From the IMG/VR virus record IMGVR_UViG_2541047748_000013: 41,069 bases of DNA; one strand, 5' to 3'. The DNA is from a virus (taxonomy: Duplodnaviria > Heunggongvirae > Uroviricota > Caudoviricetes). The notes beneath the pieces were generated by a model. It worked only from the letters and a program-made list of their open reading frames with translations. It ran no database searches and was not told where the DNA came from. The first letter of the stretch is position 1; each line of letters starts with the position of its first letter. A program made the translations under genes and the position numbers. Of this stretch, positions 3,369-34,693 are shown one piece after another.

Positions 3369-3395
3369 CCCGCAAAATATTGCGGGCTTTTTTTT
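3369..3395 (+). terminator. Hairpin plus T8 run in plus orientation abutting the tailspike stop
   Basis: cccgcaaaatattgcggg followed by ctttttttt; no U-run in the minus orientation. Confidence 0.35.
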
Positions 3396-6300
3396 AACGT
3401 TCTTCCAGAGACTGAATCCGCTCTTTTATCTTATCCATTTCTCTGCGCTGCCATGCTGCCTCGATATAGAATAAGAGATCAGGTCTGACCCCCCATCTAG
3501 ATCCTGCTGGCGTTATTTCAACGCGCTCAATGATGTCTTCCATTACCATCACTGGATTATCATCCTCATCAACAATGATGCTCCCGTCATTATCAGTCAG
3601 CGGCATTTCCCTTTGGCCAGTAATGACGTCATCATATACTGCGGGATAATCGTCATAGCAAAGAAAGGCATAGCGGCATGTTGTGCTTTCTTCTTCCATG
3701 AGTCCGTGAGAAATAAGAACATCACGAAGTTGCTGCGCGATTACACCATGATGTATCCTCGCCCCTTCTTCCCCCTTTATAGCGACAGCGTTCAGCCATT
3801 TATAAGCGATATACCTGACGTCACCCCAGGCATCCAGCAATGCTTCGTCAGGAGAGACCGGCTCTGTCTTTAATGTTCCGTCACTGGTAACCACAGGATT
3901 GGAGCCAAGATAAACTGTCGAGAACCTGTTTCCCGGACCACCAAGAGCATTTACATTATCAAGATAAGGTTTAACATCTCCGTTCTCAAAAAGATGTTCG
4001 AGTGCGTTATATACCGCGCGACGTGGAGTACTGCTTCCGGAACCATGCAACGTTATCATTGCACCATCTGCTGAAGACGTTGTTTCACCGCCGCTAACGA
4101 TTAATCTCTGAGCGGTAACATCATCAGACGGTACTTTCTTCGCAATAATGGCGTAATTACCCTCAAGTTTGACTTCCGCGCGAACTTGTCCTGATGTACC
4201 TGCATGGACAGTCAGTGACTGGACGGCAACATCATCTGTGAAATCAACGGGTACAGGAACCGTCCTCACGCCTGACGTCGACATAAAAGTAGGAAGCGTT
4301 CTGTTAGGAGTGGCTCCGTAGACAAAATCCCTTGAAACAAATTCTTCCTGTTTAATTTTCACCCTGAAACAATACAAATCAGCCGGGTGACCATCGTGAA
4401 CATAAGGATATTTTCTGTTGTTATCCCCTATGCTCCATGGGTTTAGAAAGTCTTCCCCACCGAAAATGTAGTACAGCCAGTTGTCTTTGATACAAACTGA
4501 ACCAACACCAACCGCAGAGTTAACTATTCCGCCCTGATAAATCTGATCAGTAACATTAACCCACTCTACATTATCCAGACTCCACTCATTGACGTTAACT
4601 CTGGTCATAAATGTTCTTGGATAATTTCCTGCATAACGGTTATCAGGTTCTCCTCCTTCCCACTCACCAAATGCGCGCTCACTGCCAAAAATAATCAGCT
4701 CATCGCCAACTTTGGCAAAAGGAAGGTTTGAGTGATGAACATTATTTGGGAAGCGAAGAGAATTCCATGATGTACCTAAATCAGAGCTTCTGTGCAATGA
4801 ACTACCGGGTTGAGTACTTAATGTCCCCCTGGTCGTCAGATACAGAATGCCATCATAATATTTTACACATGGCTCAGATGCATTCGCCTCATATTCTACA
4901 GGTATGCGTCTGCGAACAAAGCTACCAGGAGAACCGAAAGCATCAGAGAAATAGAGTATCCCAAGCTCGCGTGGACCAATATCACCATTATGGTAGCCAA
5001 CAGCAAAACTGTTATCGCTAATCGTCGCAAAACTGTGAATCTCAGTAACAGGAGTGCTTCCGTCAACAAAAGAAGGAATAGTTCCAAGACTGGTTTTTCT
5101 CCATGGTGACGAGTGAAATGATGTACCAAAACTCCAGTATCTACCCTCGTTATTCTGATCCACATCCTGGGTATTTTGCGTCGTAACTGTAAAAGTATTT
5201 TTATCAATAACAGTAGTCACCGTCATATTCCCGGTAACACCTGTAACACCAGAGTTTGAGAAGTTGACAAAATCACCAGCAAATAATCCGTGATCAGTAA
5301 TGCGAATATAAGCGACTTGCTGATTTGCTGCTTTCGTTATACCACCATAAACGCGAAGGCTGCGACTCATTGGGCGATCCCACAACTCTGCAACCTGCAG
5401 TTTATTTCCGCTCACGGTCCGCGTCTCAATTACAGCAAAAAGGCGATTTCTGACAACCCCCATACTCATGCAGTGATAGTTAACTGTGGGATAGTTTTCA
5501 TGTAAATCTGTAAGCCATTCCGGCGTTGTCCAGGTCTTCCCGTCATCTCCTGAGCGAACCCATGCAACATGGAGGTTATTTACACCATGGCGGTCTCCAG
5601 CCATAAAAGGCGCATAGATGACATTGTCATATACAAACGTTTTATCCTGCGTCCAGGCGTTGTACCACGGTGTATCTGTAATTTTAAATAACTCTCCCTG
5701 GATAAAATCTTCAGAAGCATAAAAAAGAGGCTGGCCCGGTATTCTCTCAAATAAAAAACGAGCATTTTTAAATCGACTGACATCCGGAAGAGTTGATACT
5801 TTAAAAGTAAGCCCTAATCCGTCAATTTTATAACCTGGAGATGAGGCTTCAAGGCACGCGCTTATTGCAGTGGAATCGTCATTTATACCATCACCAACAG
5901 CTCCAAAATCTTTGGGGCTAATAGCATCACGCATTTTATCCTGGAACGTTCGGTACACAGCCCCAGAACCATACTGAATAAACCAACCAAAACCACCAAC
6001 AACCCCGGCGATTGCAGCATCGACATAATTACGCATTGAGCGATTATTTACAGCGTCCTGCTCAAATGATGGATCTGCAAGGTTAGAAATTTTGTTTTGC
6101 TTTGCATCGTAATATTTTGCAAGCAAAGATGGTTTCATCAATGCACGTCTGAACCACCCAAAACATTGCTGGATCAGCATCGTCAGGTAGTCAAAGGCAT
6201 CTTCATGCACTTCGGGGAAAAATTTTCCCTGATTGCGAAGGTCTGTCTCCTGCACTACATCAAGCACACGATCTATCGTAATTCGCCATCCAGTAGCAAG

Positions 6301-6513
6301 CGGAGACGGAAGAACCACAGAACCGCCACTATAAGTGCCCGCCCCAGTTACCGTATAACCGGTATCCAGAACCAATTCTGTTACGTTCCCGTTCAGGTCA
6401 GACACCTGAACAACCAGGTCTGATTTTCTGAAAATTCGAAAAGTATACGGAAACGATGTCGTAACGCCGTTACCGGTGTATTCGTTGTGGTCAACTTCGG
6501 TTGAGACCGTCAT
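3394..6513 (-). CDS. Tailspike/tail fiber: T7 gp17-like N-terminal adaptor, sialidase-like Asp-box beta-propeller, C-terminal S74-type intramolecular chaperone
   Basis: N-terminus resembles podovirus tail-fiber anchoring domain; Asp-boxes SGDDGKTW and SSDLGTSW; DFGAVGDGINDD motif; C-terminal SDGTLKT...HGVIAQQL region resembles autoproteolytic chaperone domain. Confidence 0.8.
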   Translation of the reverse strand: MTVSTEVDHNEYTGNGVTTSFPYTFRIFRKSDLVVQVSDLNGNVTELVLDTGYTVTGAGTYSGGSVVLPSPLATGWRITIDRVLDVVQETDLRNQGKFFPEVHEDAFDYLTMLIQQCFGWFRRALMKPSLLAKYYDAKQNKISNLADPSFEQDAVNNRSMRNYVDAAIAGVVGGFGWFIQYGSGAVYRTFQDKMRDAISPKDFGAVGDGINDDSTAISACLEASSPGYKIDGLGLTFKVSTLPDVSRFKNARFLFERIPGQPLFYASEDFIQGELFKITDTPWYNAWTQDKTFVYDNVIYAPFMAGDRHGVNNLHVAWVRSGDDGKTWTTPEWLTDLHENYPTVNYHCMSMGVVRNRLFAVIETRTVSGNKLQVAELWDRPMSRSLRVYGGITKAANQQVAYIRITDHGLFAGDFVNFSNSGVTGVTGNMTVTTVIDKNTFTVTTQNTQDVDQNNEGRYWSFGTSFHSSPWRKTSLGTIPSFVDGSTPVTEIHSFATISDNSFAVGYHNGDIGPRELGILYFSDAFGSPGSFVRRRIPVEYEANASEPCVKYYDGILYLTTRGTLSTQPGSSLHRSSDLGTSWNSLRFPNNVHHSNLPFAKVGDELIIFGSERAFGEWEGGEPDNRYAGNYPRTFMTRVNVNEWSLDNVEWVNVTDQIYQGGIVNSAVGVGSVCIKDNWLYYIFGGEDFLNPWSIGDNNRKYPYVHDGHPADLYCFRVKIKQEEFVSRDFVYGATPNRTLPTFMSTSGVRTVPVPVDFTDDVAVQSLTVHAGTSGQVRAEVKLEGNYAIIAKKVPSDDVTAQRLIVSGGETTSSADGAMITLHGSGSSTPRRAVYNALEHLFENGDVKPYLDNVNALGGPGNRFSTVYLGSNPVVTSDGTLKTEPVSPDEALLDAWGDVRYIAYKWLNAVAIKGEEGARIHHGVIAQQLRDVLISHGLMEEESTTCRYAFLCYDDYPAVYDDVITGQREMPLTDNDGSIIVDEDDNPVMVMEDIIERVEITPAGSRWGVRPDLLFYIEAAWQRREMDKIKERIQSLEER

Positions 6514-6617
6514 GTTAAATCTCCAGATAGTCGCAGCACCCGTTGCGCCGCATATCTGGTTATTCTATTACCTGAAAAACCACATATGGATAGAAAGACT
6601 GTAAATACGAATAGATA

Positions 6618-6632
6618 TTACCTTTCAGGTAA
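6618..6632. promoter_or_regulatory. TTACC-N5-GGTAA dyad (putative phage repressor operator) upstream of the antirepressor island
   Basis: Perfect dyad TTACCTTTCAGGTAA; identical copy at 25793-25807. Confidence 0.5.
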
Positions 6633-6671
6633 TTTGCAAAACGTGCTGGATAGCAAACAAATTATTTGCTA

Positions 6672-6687
6672 CTGTATAAATATACAG
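6672..6687. promoter_or_regulatory. LexA (SOS) box
   Basis: CTGTATAAATATACAG matches CTGT-N8-ACAG with AT-rich spacer; overlaps a TATAAAT -10-like element 22 nt upstream of the 6709 start codon. Confidence 0.7.
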
Positions 6688-6708
6688 TTATTGCATGGAG
6701 AAGATAAG

Positions 6709-6966
6709 ATGCAGCAGTATCACTATCCACTGGAAGACGGATTTACCGAAAGGATTCACACGCCGGGAGGCGTCAGGTCACTGGTGGAGGGATCGCACTT
6801 GATGAAATTACTCCGGGATCTCGATAAGGATGGATTTAATGTCGATGGCCCACTTGCCGAACTGACTGCACTGATTAACTACGTCACCAGCTCACAGATG
6901 TCTATGCAGGATCTGCAAACACATCTCGACTATTGTGCCGAACAATTACGAAAACAAACCAGATAA
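6709..6966 (+). CDS. Small protein homologous to the C-terminal domain of the downstream antirepressor
   Basis: 86 aa; GGAG RBS 8 nt upstream; aligns by eye with the Ant C-terminus (LMKLLRDLDKDGFNVDGPLAELT / LMNLLNQLQEDGHDVSGAAAELT; QDLQTHLDY / RDIQTHAEY). Confidence 0.6.
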   Translation: MQQYHYPLEDGFTERIHTPGGVRSLVEGSHLMKLLRDLDKDGFNVDGPLAELTALINYVTSSQMSMQDLQTHLDYCAEQLRKQTR

Positions 6967-6997
6967 GATTTGAAATTACCAATAGGAGTGCTTATAT

Positions 6998-7012
6998 TTA
7001 CCTTTGCGGTAA
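6998..7012. promoter_or_regulatory. TTACC-N5-GGTAA dyad inside a larger hairpin between the ant-like gene and ant
   Basis: TTACCTTTGCGGTAA flanked by inverted repeat AGGAGTGC...GCACTCCT. Confidence 0.45.
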
Positions 7013-7103
7013 ATTTACATCGCACTCCTCTTGTGCCATAGTAATCGGGCACTGGCAAAATCCAGTGCCGGGATTGGCGTCCCGGGTTACTAAGTGGCGC
7101 ATA

Positions 7104-7125
7104 CCACGCCAGACGTGGTTTTTTT
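7104..7125 (+). terminator. Intrinsic terminator upstream of ant
   Basis: CCACG ccaga CGTGG followed by T7 run. Confidence 0.55.
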
Positions 7126-7281
7126 ATGCGTTAAGCACAGCTATATCCGAATTATGGTGGGCTGGGCAGGGGTCCGAAAGGACGCCGGTACCACTTAGGC
7201 CGGTACGCCAACCTTGTCCAGTTCACCACCAGTAATTGGCGTTGCGGTGGTGATTAAAATCACTAAGTGGAGATAACCACC

Positions 7282-7992
7282 ATGGCTAATGCTCAAACTG
7301 CCATCTTCAAATTTGAATCTGTTAACCCTATCCGTTCCATCATTATCGATGGCCAACCATGGTTTGTAGCCCAAGACGTTTGTAGTGCGCTGCGTATCCA
7401 AAACGTCACCCAAGCACTTGAAAAACTGGATGATGATGAAAGGTCTATGTTCAACATAGGGCATGAACATCGTGCAATTTTTGACAGCCGAGTAAAAGAG
7501 ATCAACATTATCTCCGAGTCAGGCCTCTACACACTGATCCTCCGCTGCCGCGACGCAGTGACACCAGGCACTATCCCCTACCGCTTTCGTAAATGGGTTA
7601 CAGGTGAGGTTCTTCCTCAGATCCGCCGCACCGGAAGCTACATTAAAAACTCGCTCCCGCAGGAAGAACGCATAAAGATGGTTGCCGACCAGGTAGCCAA
7701 CGCCACAGCATCAGCAGTAATGCAGGCGATGAAGATAGAGAACAAAACCTACAGCGCCCCGCTGAAGCCCGGCTACCGCAGTTTGATTCACTCGCCGTCG
7801 GGTGTTCTCGGCCTGACGGAGAACTCACTGCTGATGAATTTGCTGAACCAGTTACAGGAAGACGGGCATGACGTATCGGGCGCGGCGGCGGAGCTGACCA
7901 CCATGTTCTGCTACATCGTCGGTGTGAGCAAATGCCTGCGTGATATCCAGACCCACGCGGAGTACATCAACGACAAGGCAGGGTTCTTCTGA
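7282..7992 (+). CDS. ant: Antirepressor, Bro-N/KilA-N N-terminal domain with Ant-type C-terminal domain
   Basis: Bro-N-like N-terminus (FVAQDVCSAL...SGLYTLILRCRD); GGAG RBS 9 nt upstream of ATG at 7282. Confidence 0.8.
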   Translation: MANAQTAIFKFESVNPIRSIIIDGQPWFVAQDVCSALRIQNVTQALEKLDDDERSMFNIGHEHRAIFDSRVKEINIISESGLYTLILRCRDAVTPGTIPYRFRKWVTGEVLPQIRRTGSYIKNSLPQEERIKMVADQVANATASAVMQAMKIENKTYSAPLKPGYRSLIHSPSGVLGLTENSLLMNLLNQLQEDGHDVSGAAAELTTMFCYIVGVSKCLRDIQTHAEYINDKAGFF

Positions 7993-8077
7993 CGAGCGGC
8001 GGCACATGGATGTGCCTACAATTATCAATAATTGTTTACACTCGTTGCAGTTAAAAGCATTATACTCATGTTTAAAA

Positions 8078-8092
8078 TTACCCGATTGGTAA
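8078..8092. promoter_or_regulatory. TTACC-N5-GGTAA dyad overlapping the promoter region of the moron operon
   Basis: TTACCCGATTGGTAA 22 nt upstream of the 8114 start; TAAAAT -10-like hexamer abuts it. Confidence 0.45.
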
Positions 8093-8113
8093 AGTCGATT
8101 GGTTGAGGTTCAT

Positions 8114-8440
8114 ATGAGCAGAAGATATGTCAAGGAGCTGGCTATAGAGTCTGGCACCCCTTTGGGTATCGTTCCTGGCTCCAACTATGCCAAGGCTTTA
8201 AACCGAGACTCTGTCGTCAAAGTTATATCAAGAGACATGAATATGGTCGGAGACGATCTCAGACGGTCAGAAAATCGTGTTTATGCTGAATATATAGTAA
8301 AGAACGGAAAAAAAATTGCAGCGCCTGCTGGCGGAAAATGGGCAATAGTGACAGGGAAAAACTCAAATGCAAGAGGAAAACCAGAAGCTAAAGGAATGTC
8401 CTTCGACAAATATGCAAAAATCTATTGGGCAACCAAGTGA
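8114..8440 (+). CDS. Hypothetical protein (moron operon gene 1)
   Basis: ATG with GAGG RBS 5-6 nt upstream; 109 aa basic protein, no family recognised. Confidence 0.45.
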   Translation: MSRRYVKELAIESGTPLGIVPGSNYAKALNRDSVVKVISRDMNMVGDDLRRSENRVYAEYIVKNGKKIAAPAGGKWAIVTGKNSNARGKPEAKGMSFDKYAKIYWATK

Positions 8441-8915
8441 TAACGAAGAAACTGAGTTCGAGGAAGTTGAGGAAGGGCTAAGTAACGAGATCATTCAACA
8501 CCCAGATGCCTTCACAAGAGTTCTTGATCGCCCTGAAATTCAGGAGATAGTTGTCGCTCACCATGCGTTTCAGGGTCCGCTTCCTCCCCCCTATCTGCTT
8601 CGCGGGTATCAGGATATTTTACCTGATGCCCCCGAACGCATCTTCCAGCTGACGGAGAAGGAGTTTGCTCACCGCCAGAAAATGGAGGAAAAGGCACTTG
8701 ACGGGGCTATTAATAGAGATAAACGTGGGCAGTGGTTTGGCCTGAGTGCAACTATTTTTACAGTAGCTTGTGCAACATTATTAGGTTTAACAGGTCATGA
8801 AGTTCTAGCTGGCACAGTGATCGGTACAGTTGTTGCAGTGGCTGGTATTTTCGTTCTTAGACAAAAACCAAGCATCAAGAAGAAATCTGAAGACAACAAA
8901 CCTGAAGAAAAGTAA
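8367..8915 (+). CDS. DUF2335-like membrane protein (moron operon gene 2)
   Basis: Acidic N-terminus, HHAFQGPLPPPYLL motif, two C-terminal hydrophobic helices; overlaps previous ORF, start uncertain (8367 or 8412). Confidence 0.5.
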   Translation: MQEENQKLKECPSTNMQKSIGQPSDNEETEFEEVEEGLSNEIIQHPDAFTRVLDRPEIQEIVVAHHAFQGPLPPPYLLRGYQDILPDAPERIFQLTEKEFAHRQKMEEKALDGAINRDKRGQWFGLSATIFTVACATLLGLTGHEVLAGTVIGTVVAVAGIFVLRQKPSIKKKSEDNKPEEK

Positions 8916-8936
8916 GCCCGCGCTGCGGGCTTTTTT
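8916..8936 (+). terminator. Intrinsic terminator after the moron operon
   Basis: GCCCGC gct GCGGGC followed by T6. Confidence 0.6.
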
Positions 8937-8967
8937 GTGGACGAAACAAAAGTCAGTGCTACACTCA

Positions 8968-8995
8968 TTGACGCCACATTGAGGTGGCTTATAGA
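8968..8995 (+). promoter_or_regulatory. Putative sigma70 promoter for the small secreted-peptide gene
   Basis: TTGACG, 16-bp spacer, TATAGA. Confidence 0.35.
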
Positions 8996-9008
8996 TGGAA
9001 ATGTCACA

Positions 9009-9170
9009 ATGAAAAAAGCATTTGCTGCACTGTTCGTTTTGTTGTCTCTGGTAGCTTCAACTCAGGCCTTTGCCGGTCGTTGTCAGCACGACAGCGATAC
9101 CGCCGCTGACGGCTCCCGCTGCGGTGGGCGTTCTGCGGATTCCCGCCCGGGCGGCGGTGGCATTCGTTAA
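9009..9170 (+). CDS. Small secreted Cys-containing peptide (53 aa precursor)
   Basis: Signal peptide MKKAFAALFVLLSLVASTQAFA; own promoter and flanking terminators; internal Met of listed ORF 8937-9170. Confidence 0.4.
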   Translation: MKKAFAALFVLLSLVASTQAFAGRCQHDSDTAADGSRCGGRSADSRPGGGGIR

Positions 9171-9192
9171 AAACAAGGCCGCGAAAGCGGCC
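9171..9192. terminator. Bidirectional intrinsic terminator between convergent genes
   Basis: GGCCGC gaaa GCGGCC with A-run upstream and T-rich tract downstream. Confidence 0.55.
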
Positions 9193-9193
9193 T

Positions 9194-9205
9194 GTGACAT
9201 GTCAC
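9194..9205. repeat. 12-bp perfect palindrome GTGACATGTCAC, copy 1 of 3; contains the TGA stop of the 9202-9498 gene
   Basis: Exact 12-mer also at 26777-26788 and 29042-29053, each next to a terminator hairpin. Confidence 0.6.
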
Positions 9206-9498
9206 GTTCCTTTTCTGAATGATAGCCGTTCGAAAAATGATGACATTCCACCGCAGACAATAGCAAAGATGATCCCACCAAAGAAGAGAAGGCCAGCCTG
9301 CCACCACTCCCACCGCCATACATCCACAGCACCAACCATACCAACAATCGCTCCAACAAATGGAATATAGCTCACGATGAAAGCAATGGGGGCTGCAATT
9401 ATCCAGTGCAATCCCCACCATGATTCAAGCCCAGCCATAATTGCTGCCAACTGAAAAAGGCCAACGACGATATAAACAATGAATCCTATCGCTTGCAT
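9202..9498 (-). CDS. Small integral membrane protein (3 TM), superinfection-exclusion-like position
   Basis: 98 aa, Trp-rich hydrophobic helices, directly downstream of the ejection-protein genes. Confidence 0.5.
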   Translation of the reverse strand: MQAIGFIVYIVVGLFQLAAIMAGLESWWGLHWIIAAPIAFIVSYIPFVGAIVGMVGAVDVWRWEWWQAGLLFFGGIIFAIVCGGMSSFFERLSFRKGT

Positions 9499-9510
9499 GT
9501 AGTCACCTAT

Positions 9511-26129: not shown

Positions 26130-26206
26130 GTGGCATTAGCTCAGTTGGACAGAGCAACCGCCTTCTAAGCGGTTGGTCGCAGGTTCGAATCCTGCATGCC
26201 ACGCCA
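26130..26206 (+). tRNA. tRNA-Arg (anticodon UCU)
   Basis: Manual cloverleaf: acceptor GTGGCAT/ATGCCAC, D-stem GCTC/GAGC, anticodon stem ACCGC/GCGGT with loop CTTCTAA, T-arm GCAGG-TTCGAAT-CCTGC, discriminator G, encoded CCA. Confidence 0.9.
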
Positions 26207-33400: not shown

Positions 33401-33575
33401 TCTTTAGTGCACAAGCAAATTCATTACGATGGCGGTTGGCGCTATTCATTGCACATTCAACACATGTTCCGTTCAGAACATACCTTTCAGAGAGATGGCC
33501 GTGACGGCACCGCTTTCCTGTGAAATAGCGATTTAACCCGGCTTTTGCGGCCTCCATTCTGGTTACTATCTTCAA
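33363..33575 (-). CDS. Small Cys/His-rich protein in the cII position
   Basis: 64-70 aa, CRHGH...CVEC cluster; overlaps O-like start; weak RBS; low support. Confidence 0.3.
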   Translation of the reverse strand: MKIVTRMEAAKAGLNRYFTGKRCRHGHLSERYVLNGTCVECAMNSANRHRNEFACALKSARGETYGKQLD

Positions 33576-34108: not shown

Positions 34109-34693
34109 ATGAAAAGTATCCAGGACGTCCGCAGGCAAAATCTCAACGACTTGATCGACCGTGAATTCAATGGTGTTCAGACGCGGATGGCTGAAAAACT
34201 TGGAACTCAGGCAAATCTGGTAAACCGCTGGGCTCTTGGCAAGAAGGTTATCGGCGACCAGGTTGCACGAAAAATTGAAGCTGCCGCCAATAAACCCCGT
34301 AACTGGCTTGATATTGATCGCTCGCTTTCTCAGGAGGGTTTTCAGCCTGTCGGCCCGAGCGATATAGGTCAGCTGGCGGCTCACAACCTGGAACGCTGGA
34401 TGAGCGAAAGCCGCGACCTTTCAACGCAGGGAAAACTACACCGCGCATCCGGCGTCGCCCAGGTGACAATCAGCCGCCTGTTAAACAATGAGGTCAGCGT
34501 TTCCATTTCCACCCTGGAGAATGTTGCATCCGCATTCGGGCGTCACGGCTATGAATTACTGATTCACCCGCACGACCCTGCGACCATCAACTATGATCGC
34601 TCGCGCTACGCATTGTTACCCGAAACCGAGAAAGCAAAGATCGAAAGTTACATTGAATTTGTCATCAACCAGAACGAAAAAAACAAACAATAA
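34109..34693 (+). CDS. CI-type repressor with tandem HTH domains and no S24 peptidase domain
   Basis: 194 aa; two XRE-like HTH segments; no Ala-Gly/Ser-Lys autocleavage domain visible; short leader. Confidence 0.6.
   Translation: MKSIQDVRRQNLNDLIDREFNGVQTRMAEKLGTQANLVNRWALGKKVIGDQVARKIEAAANKPRNWLDIDRSLSQEGFQPVGPSDIGQLAAHNLERWMSESRDLSTQGKLHRASGVAQVTISRLLNNEVSVSISTLENVASAFGRHGYELLIHPHDPATINYDRSRYALLPETEKAKIESYIEFVINQNEKNKQ

Follow-up and report, generated by a model that had tools for sequence, protein, structure and literature searches.

The locus between two antirepressor-related genes of a prophage raises the question of what a gap with many repeats and no convincing open reading frame is doing there. 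The window, which is the whole stretch of 41,069 nucleotides analysed, belongs to the epsilon15-like (Uetakevirus) prophages and encodes an endosialidase tailspike, and the gap extends from the stop codon of a small gene at 6966 to the ATG of a Bro-N gene at 7282. An initial annotation of the segment from 7013 onwards described nested inverted repeats, an intrinsic terminator and a direct repeat, and suggested an attenuator or a small regulatory RNA controlling the downstream gene, ant, as the sar antisense RNA does in phage P22. We propose, with a probability of roughly 0.8, that the region is a P1 immI-type RNA immunity cassette placed before a Bro-N antirepressor gene. The repeats, the terminator and the lack of a conserved ORF are those of a known regulatory cassette and not of a new element.

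The initial annotation spoke of an ant-like gene followed by ant. The upstream gene encodes 85 aa, is preceded by a perfect LexA box and has a product 88% identical to that of the gene annotated ant in SPC32H. The downstream gene, for which we retain the name ant, is a Bro-N fusion with the same C-terminal domain, its residues 155-228 being 42% identical to the small Ant upstream. The Bro-N protein is also 81% identical to ZX5 ORF4, overexpression of which promoted lytic growth (PMC9782041).

Arrangement of the intergenic region

The initial annotation had put forward an Rfam scan as a check. At gathering thresholds, the scan of the whole window returned three matches, namely isrK, C4 antisense RNA and one tRNA elsewhere, with both of the former on the strand of ant (plus). 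The isrK match (RF01394; 67.7 bits against a gathering score of 50), to a family of Hfq-binding RNA, covers 7049-7125 and, in addition to passing its score threshold, has a Rho-independent terminator at its end. The C4 match (RF01695; 66 bits against 45) is full-length, comprising model positions 1-87. A sensitive scan further placed c4-a1b1 (RF03163) at 7036-7088 with 44.1 bits, just below its gathering score of 46.7. The suggestion of a small regulatory RNA controlling ant is thereby borne out by two RNA families on the plus strand, with boxes in C4 that are complementary to the ant leader. The elements of the region are as follows.

6970-6998, plus strand: distal sigma-70-like promoter (-35 TTGAAA, 17-nt spacer, -10 TATATT)
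6980-6991 and 7022-7033: outer inverted repeat CAATAGGAGTGC/GCACTCCTCTTG, 92% complementary, flanking the operator
6993-7002 and 7008-7017: inner dyad TATATTTACC/GGTAAATTTA
6997-7013: operator dyad TTTACC-N5-GGTAAA (TTTACCTTTGCGGTAAA), a perfect match, overlapping the distal -10 and abutting the proximal -35
7014-7042, plus strand: proximal promoter (-35 TTTACA, extended -10 TGcCATAGT), predicted start near 7049
7048-7055 and 7062-7069: inverted repeat GGCACTGG/CCAGTGCC, 100% complementary
7048-7069, plus strand: leader hairpin 1
7049-7125, plus strand: IsrK-like leader or short RNA (Rfam isrK)
7069-7073 and 7080-7084: inverted repeat CGGGA/TCCCG
7069-7084, plus strand: leader hairpin 2, with a1 in its loop
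7074-7080, plus strand: box a1, UUGGCGU
7090-7097, plus strand: box b1, CUAAGUGG
7103-7119, plus strand: stem of the intrinsic terminator, with a T-run to 7125
7150-7233, plus strand: C4-type antisense RNA (Rfam match; mature RNA about 7156-7230)
7184-7191 and 7199-7206: direct repeat GCCGGTAC
7191-7198, plus strand: b', CCACUUAG, in the loop of C4 hairpin 2
7205-7211, plus strand: a', ACGCCAA, in the 7-nt junction of C4
7236-7242, plus strand: target box a2, UUGGCGU, lying in a small hairpin's loop immediately after C4
7246-7253, plus strand: conserved element GGUGGUGA, complementary to 7223-7230 (C4 stem, 3' strand) as well as to 7273-7281
7263-7270, plus strand: target box b2, CUAAGUGG, overlapping the ant Shine-Dalgarno sequence
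7269-7272, plus strand: ant Shine-Dalgarno GGAG, 9 nt before the ATG at 7282
7282-7992, plus strand: Bro-N antirepressor-like gene, 236 aa (Pfam Bro-N, E 9.6e-20)

All of the repeats that had been described, together with the terminator, were located in the sequence, and most of them acquire an identity from the two families. The GGCACTGG/CCAGTGCC and CGGGA/TCCCG repeats are the two isrK hairpins, and the terminator is the isrK terminator. The supposed direct repeat GCCGGTAC is formed by both strands of C4 hairpin 2, the stem of which contains the palindrome CCGG. The left arm of the outer inverted repeat falls before position 7013, where the segment first described begins. In the alignment, this outer repeat is kept in the closest relatives only, with one complementary variant in ST11-OXA245phi3.2, and is absent from Kp4865-1, Tyrion and ST512-KPC3phi13.3; given a conservation limited to the closest relatives, GGAGTGC/GCACTCC is assigned no function as an RNA element or operator extension.

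The transcript from 7049 to 7300 is predicted to fold at -105.4 kcal/mol, compared to a shuffled mean of -81.3 (z -4.99; 0 of 200 shuffles folded as well). The composite TTGGCGT-N(5-35)-CTAAGTGG occurs three times in the 41 kb, each time within the region, and was found in none of 100 shuffles.

Transcription of the cassette would start near 7049 from a promoter homologous to P1c4, with a second promoter upstream and a copy of the operator between the two. The proximal -10 (CATAGT, 7037-7042) aligns column by column with the -10 of P1c4 (former P51b), TATAGT, and with that of 17 other loci. The isrK model likewise begins at 7049, and its first position, when taken as +1 in Gifsy-1, reproduces exactly the transcript numbering of Hershko-Shalev et al. 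2016. The distal promoter agrees with the consensus at 10 of 12 positions and is kept in the alignment of close Uetakevirus relatives. Promoter use is predicted from these matches. The window has 12 copies of the operator dyad, where 1.15 would be expected, and these cluster around an HTH repressor gene of 194 aa (34109-34693), which is flanked by dyad pairs. The same type of dyad is annotated as "repressor; lysogeny" upstream of gp19 in the epsilon15 record. We presume that it is the binding site of the prophage HTH repressor, and the cassette appears, from its sequence, to be wired to this repressor as the P1 cassette is to C1. Should the repressor, when bound at 6997-7013, silence the proximal promoter as well, lysogens would make no C4.

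The C4 segment folds, in the minimum free energy structure and the family consensus alike, into a closing stem of 16-17 bp, a hairpin 1 with a GAAA loop, and hairpin 2. Predicted unpaired probabilities are 0.99 for a' and 0.85 for b'. Folding of the segment gives a z of -4.60 on the plus strand versus -0.42 on the minus strand. The closing stem is 100% paired across 16 distinct sequences, with six pairs changed on both sides. Based on homology to the annotated P1 c4 (8344-8420), the mature RNA would run from about 7156 to 7230, with GGUGGG at its start and CACCACC at its end, followed by an A. The acceptor-like stem GGUGGG/UUCACC, followed by a tRNA-like ACCA, is present in all loci and makes the sequence seem compatible with excision by RNase P; Hartmann et al. 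in 1995 reportedly found P1 c4 to be excised from its precursor by this enzyme. An actual tRNA or tmRNA was considered and rejected, as ARAGORN finds only a tRNA-Arg at 26130.

Box a' is exactly complementary to a1 and a2 over 7 nt, and b' to b1 and b2 over 8 nt. The C4 segment therefore has the boxes expected of its class: a' and b' are complementary to a2 and b2, b2 lies on a ribosome-binding site, and an a1/b1 copy stands upstream. The distance from the end of b2 to the ATG is about 11 nt, and is 7-11 nt in 15 of 19 related loci, including that of P1 icd. The b'/b2 helix reaches just the first two bases of GGAG. In one model, a2 is buried by intramolecular structure (unpaired probability 0.09); the comparative fold places it in a 6-nt loop of a 4-bp hairpin whose stem shows covariation. 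The stretch at 7273-7281, to which GGUGGUGA is complementary, immediately precedes the ant AUG. In the consensus fold, GUGGUG is paired with CAYYAU, which takes in the first two bases (AU) of the start codon, and the changes seen are one-sided only. Such a pairing near the start codon would leave b2 and the Shine-Dalgarno sequence in a loop. RNAcofold of C4 with either target or leader produced no intermolecular pairs beyond those of the monomers, and this algorithm cannot model loop-loop contacts between folded partners.

These elements suggest the following scheme. Many transcripts would end at the terminator (7103-7125) and yield an IsrK-like RNA of about 77 nt that displays a1 and b1. The terminator hairpin is modest (-7.6 kcal/mol), which makes partial read-through plausible, and the transcripts that read through would carry C4 (about 7156-7230), folding into the tRNA-like stem that ends in ACCA. 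By homology with P1, C4 would then be cut out by RNase P, and the exposed a' and b' of the free RNA would pair with a2 and b2 of the ant leader. Since b2 overlaps the Shine-Dalgarno sequence, this pairing would block ribosome binding at ant, and the antirepressor would not be made; such a translational block is what the position of the boxes predicts. The short leader RNA has the same boxes and a longer complementarity, and is most likely a decoy that would bind C4 and turn ant on, as IsrK does in Gifsy-1. The predicted duplex with the C4 core is more stable for the leader than for the target (-34.5 versus -27.7 kcal/mol), and the leader duplex is predicted to be the lower in energy in 16 of the 19 loci. 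A decoy role for the leader RNA would be consistent with these values.

Box pairing across 19 related loci

In order to compare the pairings between phages, a set of 19 loci was assembled from the window, the annotated P1 immI locus and 17 other phage loci. All 18 fetched loci contain a C4 match, and isrK or c4-a1b1 reaches its gathering score in all except SW-37. A search within each locus found a' to be complementary to its own a1 and a2 over 7 nt in 19 of 19 loci, despite four different a-box sequences (UUGGCGU, UUGGUCU, UUGAGAC and UUGACAG). The b' segment likewise has its complements in b1 and b2 of the same locus in 19 of 19 cases, over 6-11 nt and with 12 loop sequences. Mean complementarity is 8.4 nt for self and 4.6 nt for non-self combinations.

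The alignment gives the same picture for the a-box. Pairing in the a'/a2 helix amounts to 95.5%, and four of its seven pairs show compensatory changes; none of 500 shuffles reached the observed covariation, and slid controls drop to 34-45% paired. The corresponding column-based count for b'/b2 (51-58% paired) is degraded by indels in the variable loop, and the search by individual sequence was used instead. The a and b types also assort independently among close relatives: the window combines a GGCG with b AAGUGG, phiv142-3 has a GGUC with b AAGUGG, and phiV10 has a GGCG with b AAAAGG. The co-variation across the 19 loci is strong evidence that the box pairings are under selection. It is thus quite probable that the regulator is an RNA of the P1/P7 c4 type, transcribed from the same strand as its target and together with it, processed, and acting in trans through boxes of 7 and 8 nt.

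Known RNA systems and rival readings

The closest likeness is to the immI region of P1 and P7. The P1 record has, in order, the operator Oc4, the promoters P2c4 and P1c4, a1, b1, c4 (77 nt), a2, b2 and icd, with a2 annotated 4 nt past c4 and the icd ATG 11 nt past b2; alignment puts the elements of the window and of P1 in the same columns, almost nucleotide for nucleotide. The two systems share the order and spacing of the -10, a1, b1, a terminator-like hairpin, C4, a2, b2 and the start codon, as well as the secondary structure, in which a' occupies the junction and b' the loop of a hairpin. In both, b2 lies on the ribosome-binding site of the first gene downstream, RNA and target are co-transcribed from the same strand, and an operator of the prophage repressor is found at the promoter. 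They differ in the boxes themselves, the a-box being UUGGCGU here and UUGACAG in P1, and the b-box CUAAGUGG here and GUUAGUGA in P1, so that cross-immunity is not expected. In P1, ant expression needs icd to be translated, and Rho-dependent polarity plays an additional part. No icd-like ORF was found in the region studied here, where the ATG about 11 nt after b2 directly opens the 236-aa Bro-N gene and b2 sits on the Shine-Dalgarno sequence of the antirepressor gene with no icd between. Unlike in P1, the operator is that of an epsilon15-type HTH repressor and not of C1, the regulated Bro-N protein is unrelated to P1 Ant1, and the phage is a podovirus prophage and not a plasmid prophage.

Gifsy-1 provides the second comparison, with the order isrK, a C4 match (69 bits), anrP and isrJ. 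In the published numbering, the mutant positions C18, G28 and G31 belong to isrK, the latter two being part of a1; C159 and C162 are inside a', and A107 corresponds to the A in AUGGUGGGG at the 5' end of C4. The published compensatory pairs G28A/C162U and G31A/C159U are thus a1/a' pairs. Because of the C4 match and because the published mutant positions map onto a', orf45/STnc1160 is a C4 homologue. In the Gifsy-1 study (PMC4825925), anrP translation rises from 4 units to 484 and 926 when a' is mutated, the compensatory pairs restore structure, and IsrK supplied in trans activates anrP translation 139-fold while an a1-mutant IsrK is inactive. These data agree with C4 as a repressor that the leader RNA relieves by sequestering it. 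The authors themselves explain activation through translation of orf45 (PMC4825925).

The window resembles Gifsy-1 in the two hairpins and the terminator of its isrK, in the C4 that follows directly, in the a-box UUGGCGU, in the placing of b2 on the Shine-Dalgarno sequence of an antirepressor gene, and in a leader with extended complementarity to the C4 core. It differs from Gifsy-1 in its b-box and in lacking an ORF of orf45 length, isrJ downstream and antQ upstream, and no relation of the Bro-N protein to AnrP (or to P1 Ant1) was found. The Gifsy-1 module lies in the nin/Q region, whereas the module here adjoins the tailspike and a LexA-controlled ant gene. The frame that corresponds to orf45 has 14 codons, and the detailed Gifsy-1 mechanism is therefore not transferable unchanged.

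The quoted parts of the IsrK paper liken its locus to P4 CI/SeqA rather than to P1 c4, with SeqA as the structural homologue of IsrK (PMC4825925). The likeness to P4 CI RNA (seqA/seqB/seqC), compared here from its published description, consists of a small RNA processed from the leader of the operon that it controls, with complementary boxes on both sides. P4 CI causes premature transcription termination of the replication genes, according to that paper (PMC4825925); in the window, the downstream box overlaps the Shine-Dalgarno sequence, which points to translational control, unlike P4 CI.

P22 sar, the analogy first proposed, limits antirepressor synthesis in a temperate phage by means of a small RNA, and in this the two systems are alike. 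It is a cis-antisense RNA of full complementarity that comes from the opposite strand and spans the ant ribosome-binding site, while the regulator here is a structured RNA of the same strand with two short boxes. A sar-like RNA from the minus strand over the ant ribosome-binding site would fit the biological context of antirepressor control, and a terminator-like hairpin is present on the minus strand at 7281-7266. This hairpin is merely the complement of the plus-strand GGUGGU/ACCACC stem. No promoter-like site was found on the minus strand in 6400-8200, shuffled sequences fold as well as the C4 segment does on its minus strand (z -0.42), no sar match was obtained at E<=10, and every Rfam match, including both RNA genes, lies on the plus strand. 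Neither arc nor mnt flanks the region, its neighbours being the Ant homologue and the tailspike. We consider a sar-like RNA very improbable, and the analogy did not survive the strand assignment. Equally improbable is that the region encodes a small protein, either the 100-aa ORF with a TTG start (6933-7235) or one of the 34-aa ORFs. These appear in the open-reading-frame listing; they have no Pfam or NCBIfam match, overlap the promoter, the terminator and the RNA genes, and are not kept in relatives. The non-coding character first assigned to the region is upheld by the absence of a conserved ORF. From a conserved AUG at 7154, the window has an ORF of 14 codons that stops at a TAG inside the b' loop, and in relatives the length from this AUG ranges from 3 codons to read-through, with frame shifts. 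The "Ash"/orf45 frame was rejected as a protein on account of this variation in length and frame.

Two further readings accept RNA-level control and assign it differently. An attenuator could act alone, with the terminator at 7103-7125 gating read-through to ant and the other hairpins serving as cis alternatives with no RNA acting in trans. A genuine intrinsic terminator does stand between promoter and ant, of a working type and of a strength that makes partial read-through plausible, so the attenuator part of the original suggestion can be kept as a function that this element could serve. The equivalent terminator in Gifsy-1 is read through, with cis structures A and B (PMC4825925). An attenuator alone would leave unexplained why the a and b boxes co-vary three ways in 19 loci, why the tRNA-like processed architecture is shared with P1 c4, and why IsrK activates in trans in Gifsy-1; we regard it as improbable. 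About as improbable is a purely Gifsy-1 mode, in which translation of an orf45-like ORF would open ant by coupling and the C4-like RNA would have no repressor role. In its favour, the conserved AUG at 7154, at the C4 5' end, is the first orf45 start in Gifsy-1, and some relatives have ORFs of 28-35 codons or longer at this place, annotated "Ash family protein". No orf45-type ORF coupled to the antirepressor was found in the window, where the ORF ends 84 nt before ant, and frame-changing indels in the stem are compensated at the RNA level. A P1 immI-type cassette with a c4-type repressor RNA remains the preferred reading.

Distribution and significance of the cassette

The region is 100% identical to that of E. 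coli O7:K1 CE10 and others. Of 5,426 complete E. coli genomes, at least 435 have the cassette by megablast, and 87 records match at 99% identity or more. The whole cassette is missing from epsilon15 and SPC32H, which makes it an insertion that the E. coli, Klebsiella and Enterobacter members carry. As unrelated antirepressor genes stand behind the same RNA cassette, it is also portable. The RNA genes are unannotated in the GenBank/RefSeq records inspected, which at their place are blank or have spurious small ORFs labelled "Ash family protein" or "similar to SF0880".

The kind of mechanism is already known, from the Rfam families, the P1/P7 work, the Gifsy-1 paper and the APSE paper, the last of which notes isrK, c4 and a Bro-N gene together. 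Beyond this, the terminated leader may be a dedicated sponge for C4, with which it shares its promoter, the balance between termination and read-through at 7103-7125 may decide antirepressor synthesis, and specificity may be set by a modular two-key code of a and b boxes. We advance jointly, and tentatively, a three-RNA switch (with the leader as a C4 sponge and the termination ratio), the two-key a/b code, a second, RNA-gated antirepressor and the corollary for Gifsy-1; this joint reading falls somewhat short of even odds.

For the annotation of these phages, the result is a correction, placing two RNA genes where records show nothing or spurious ORFs. It joins the P1 c4 and Salmonella IsrK literatures by coordinate mapping and offers a simpler reading of the Gifsy-1 mutants. 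If it is true, Gifsy-1 IsrK would be the a1b1 leader, and orf45/STnc1160 the c4, of a P1-type immI system, and this explicit mapping is the most useful by-product of the analysis. The cassette supplies a probable route by which the Bro-N antirepressor is silenced in epsilon15-like prophages of E. coli, Klebsiella and Enterobacter, among them those of K1 meningitis strains such as CE10. Heteroimmunity classes would be predictable from the a and b box sequences, and, if the joint reading is true, these prophages would have added an RNA-gated antirepressor to a LexA-gated one with which it shares a C-terminal domain.

Two antirepressor genes and the operator dyads

The C4 cassette, comprising an isrK-like leader (7049-7125), the C4 antisense RNA (7150-7233) and the a2/b2 boxes, is preceded by a small ant gene with its own regulatory site:

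6670-6688, LexA box, perfect palindrome TACTGTATAAATATACAGT, 20 nt 5' of the 85-aa gene
6709-6966, 85-aa small ant gene, 88% identity to the gene that is annotated ant (anti-repressor) in Salmonella phage SPC32H

The 85-aa gene is probably the SOS-inducible antirepressor of the prophage. Its product aligns with aa 155-228, the C-terminal third, of the 236-aa Bro-N protein encoded by ant (7282-7992, +) at 42% identity (E 9e-16). The prophage thus encodes two proteins that share a putative repressor-binding domain, with one gene located behind the LexA box and the other behind the C4 cassette. Pfam matches of the repressor gene product (34109-34693) include an HTH domain and no protease domain.

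The dyad [AT]TTACC-N5-GGTAA[AT] occurs 12 times in the window versus 1.15 expected, with copies spread across the genome in a manner resembling the scattered operator network of P1 C1:

6617, 6997, 8077, 16232, 25792, 28948, 31689, 31751, 33990, 34038, 34750 and 34812, dyad copies

Pairs of dyads flank the HTH repressor gene, and 5' of ORF 8111-8440 a promoter-like site is followed by the dyad at 8077-8093. Elsewhere in the window are a tailspike gene (3394-6513, -), encoding a full endosialidase with K1 capsule depolymerase domains and an S74 chaperone, and a tRNA-Arg(TCT) gene (26130-26206).

Distribution and annotation of the cassette

In the Salmonella Uetakeviruses SPC32H and epsilon15, a membrane-protein gene directly follows the small ant gene, and isrK, C4 and the Bro-N gene are all absent after ant/gp19. 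From this absence, we infer that the cassette and its downstream ORFs (window ~7000-9500) are an insertion or moron of the E. coli/Klebsiella/Enterobacter lineage. Annotated ORFs in two relatives' loci match PF10554 (Phage_ASH, "Ash protein family", Pfam), and these matches coincide exactly with the isrK, C4 and a2/b2 RNA region:

889-1171, Hafnia phage yong2 (L010)
1042-1155, Yersinia phage vB_YpM_41 (L011)

The Ash reading frame is interrupted or shifted in other relatives, which suggests that PF10554 may have been built from the translated sequence of an RNA gene. Over the isrK/C4 region, PGAP-style "Ash family protein" annotations are probably spurious.

Other small-RNA families lie immediately 3' of the antirepressor gene in relatives:

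1635-1718, sRNA-Xcc1, Stx2a phage (L016)
1717-1791, isrJ, SW-37 (L013)
33406-33480, isrJ, Gifsy-1 (L022)

No such family was found 3' of ant in the window.

Leader conformation and read-through transcription

The conserved element GGTGGTGA (7246-7253) has complements in two places, the 3' strand of the C4 stem (7223-7230) and the bases adjoining the start codon (7273-7281), and could let the leader switch between a precursor and a processed conformation. No plus-strand terminator was predicted between the small ant stop and the isrK terminator (6966-7103); SOS-induced transcripts from the LexA-controlled small ant gene may therefore extend into the C4 cassette. Such read-through RNAs, if made, would hold both arms of the GGAGTGC/GCACTCC repeat (6980-6991 and 7022-7033).
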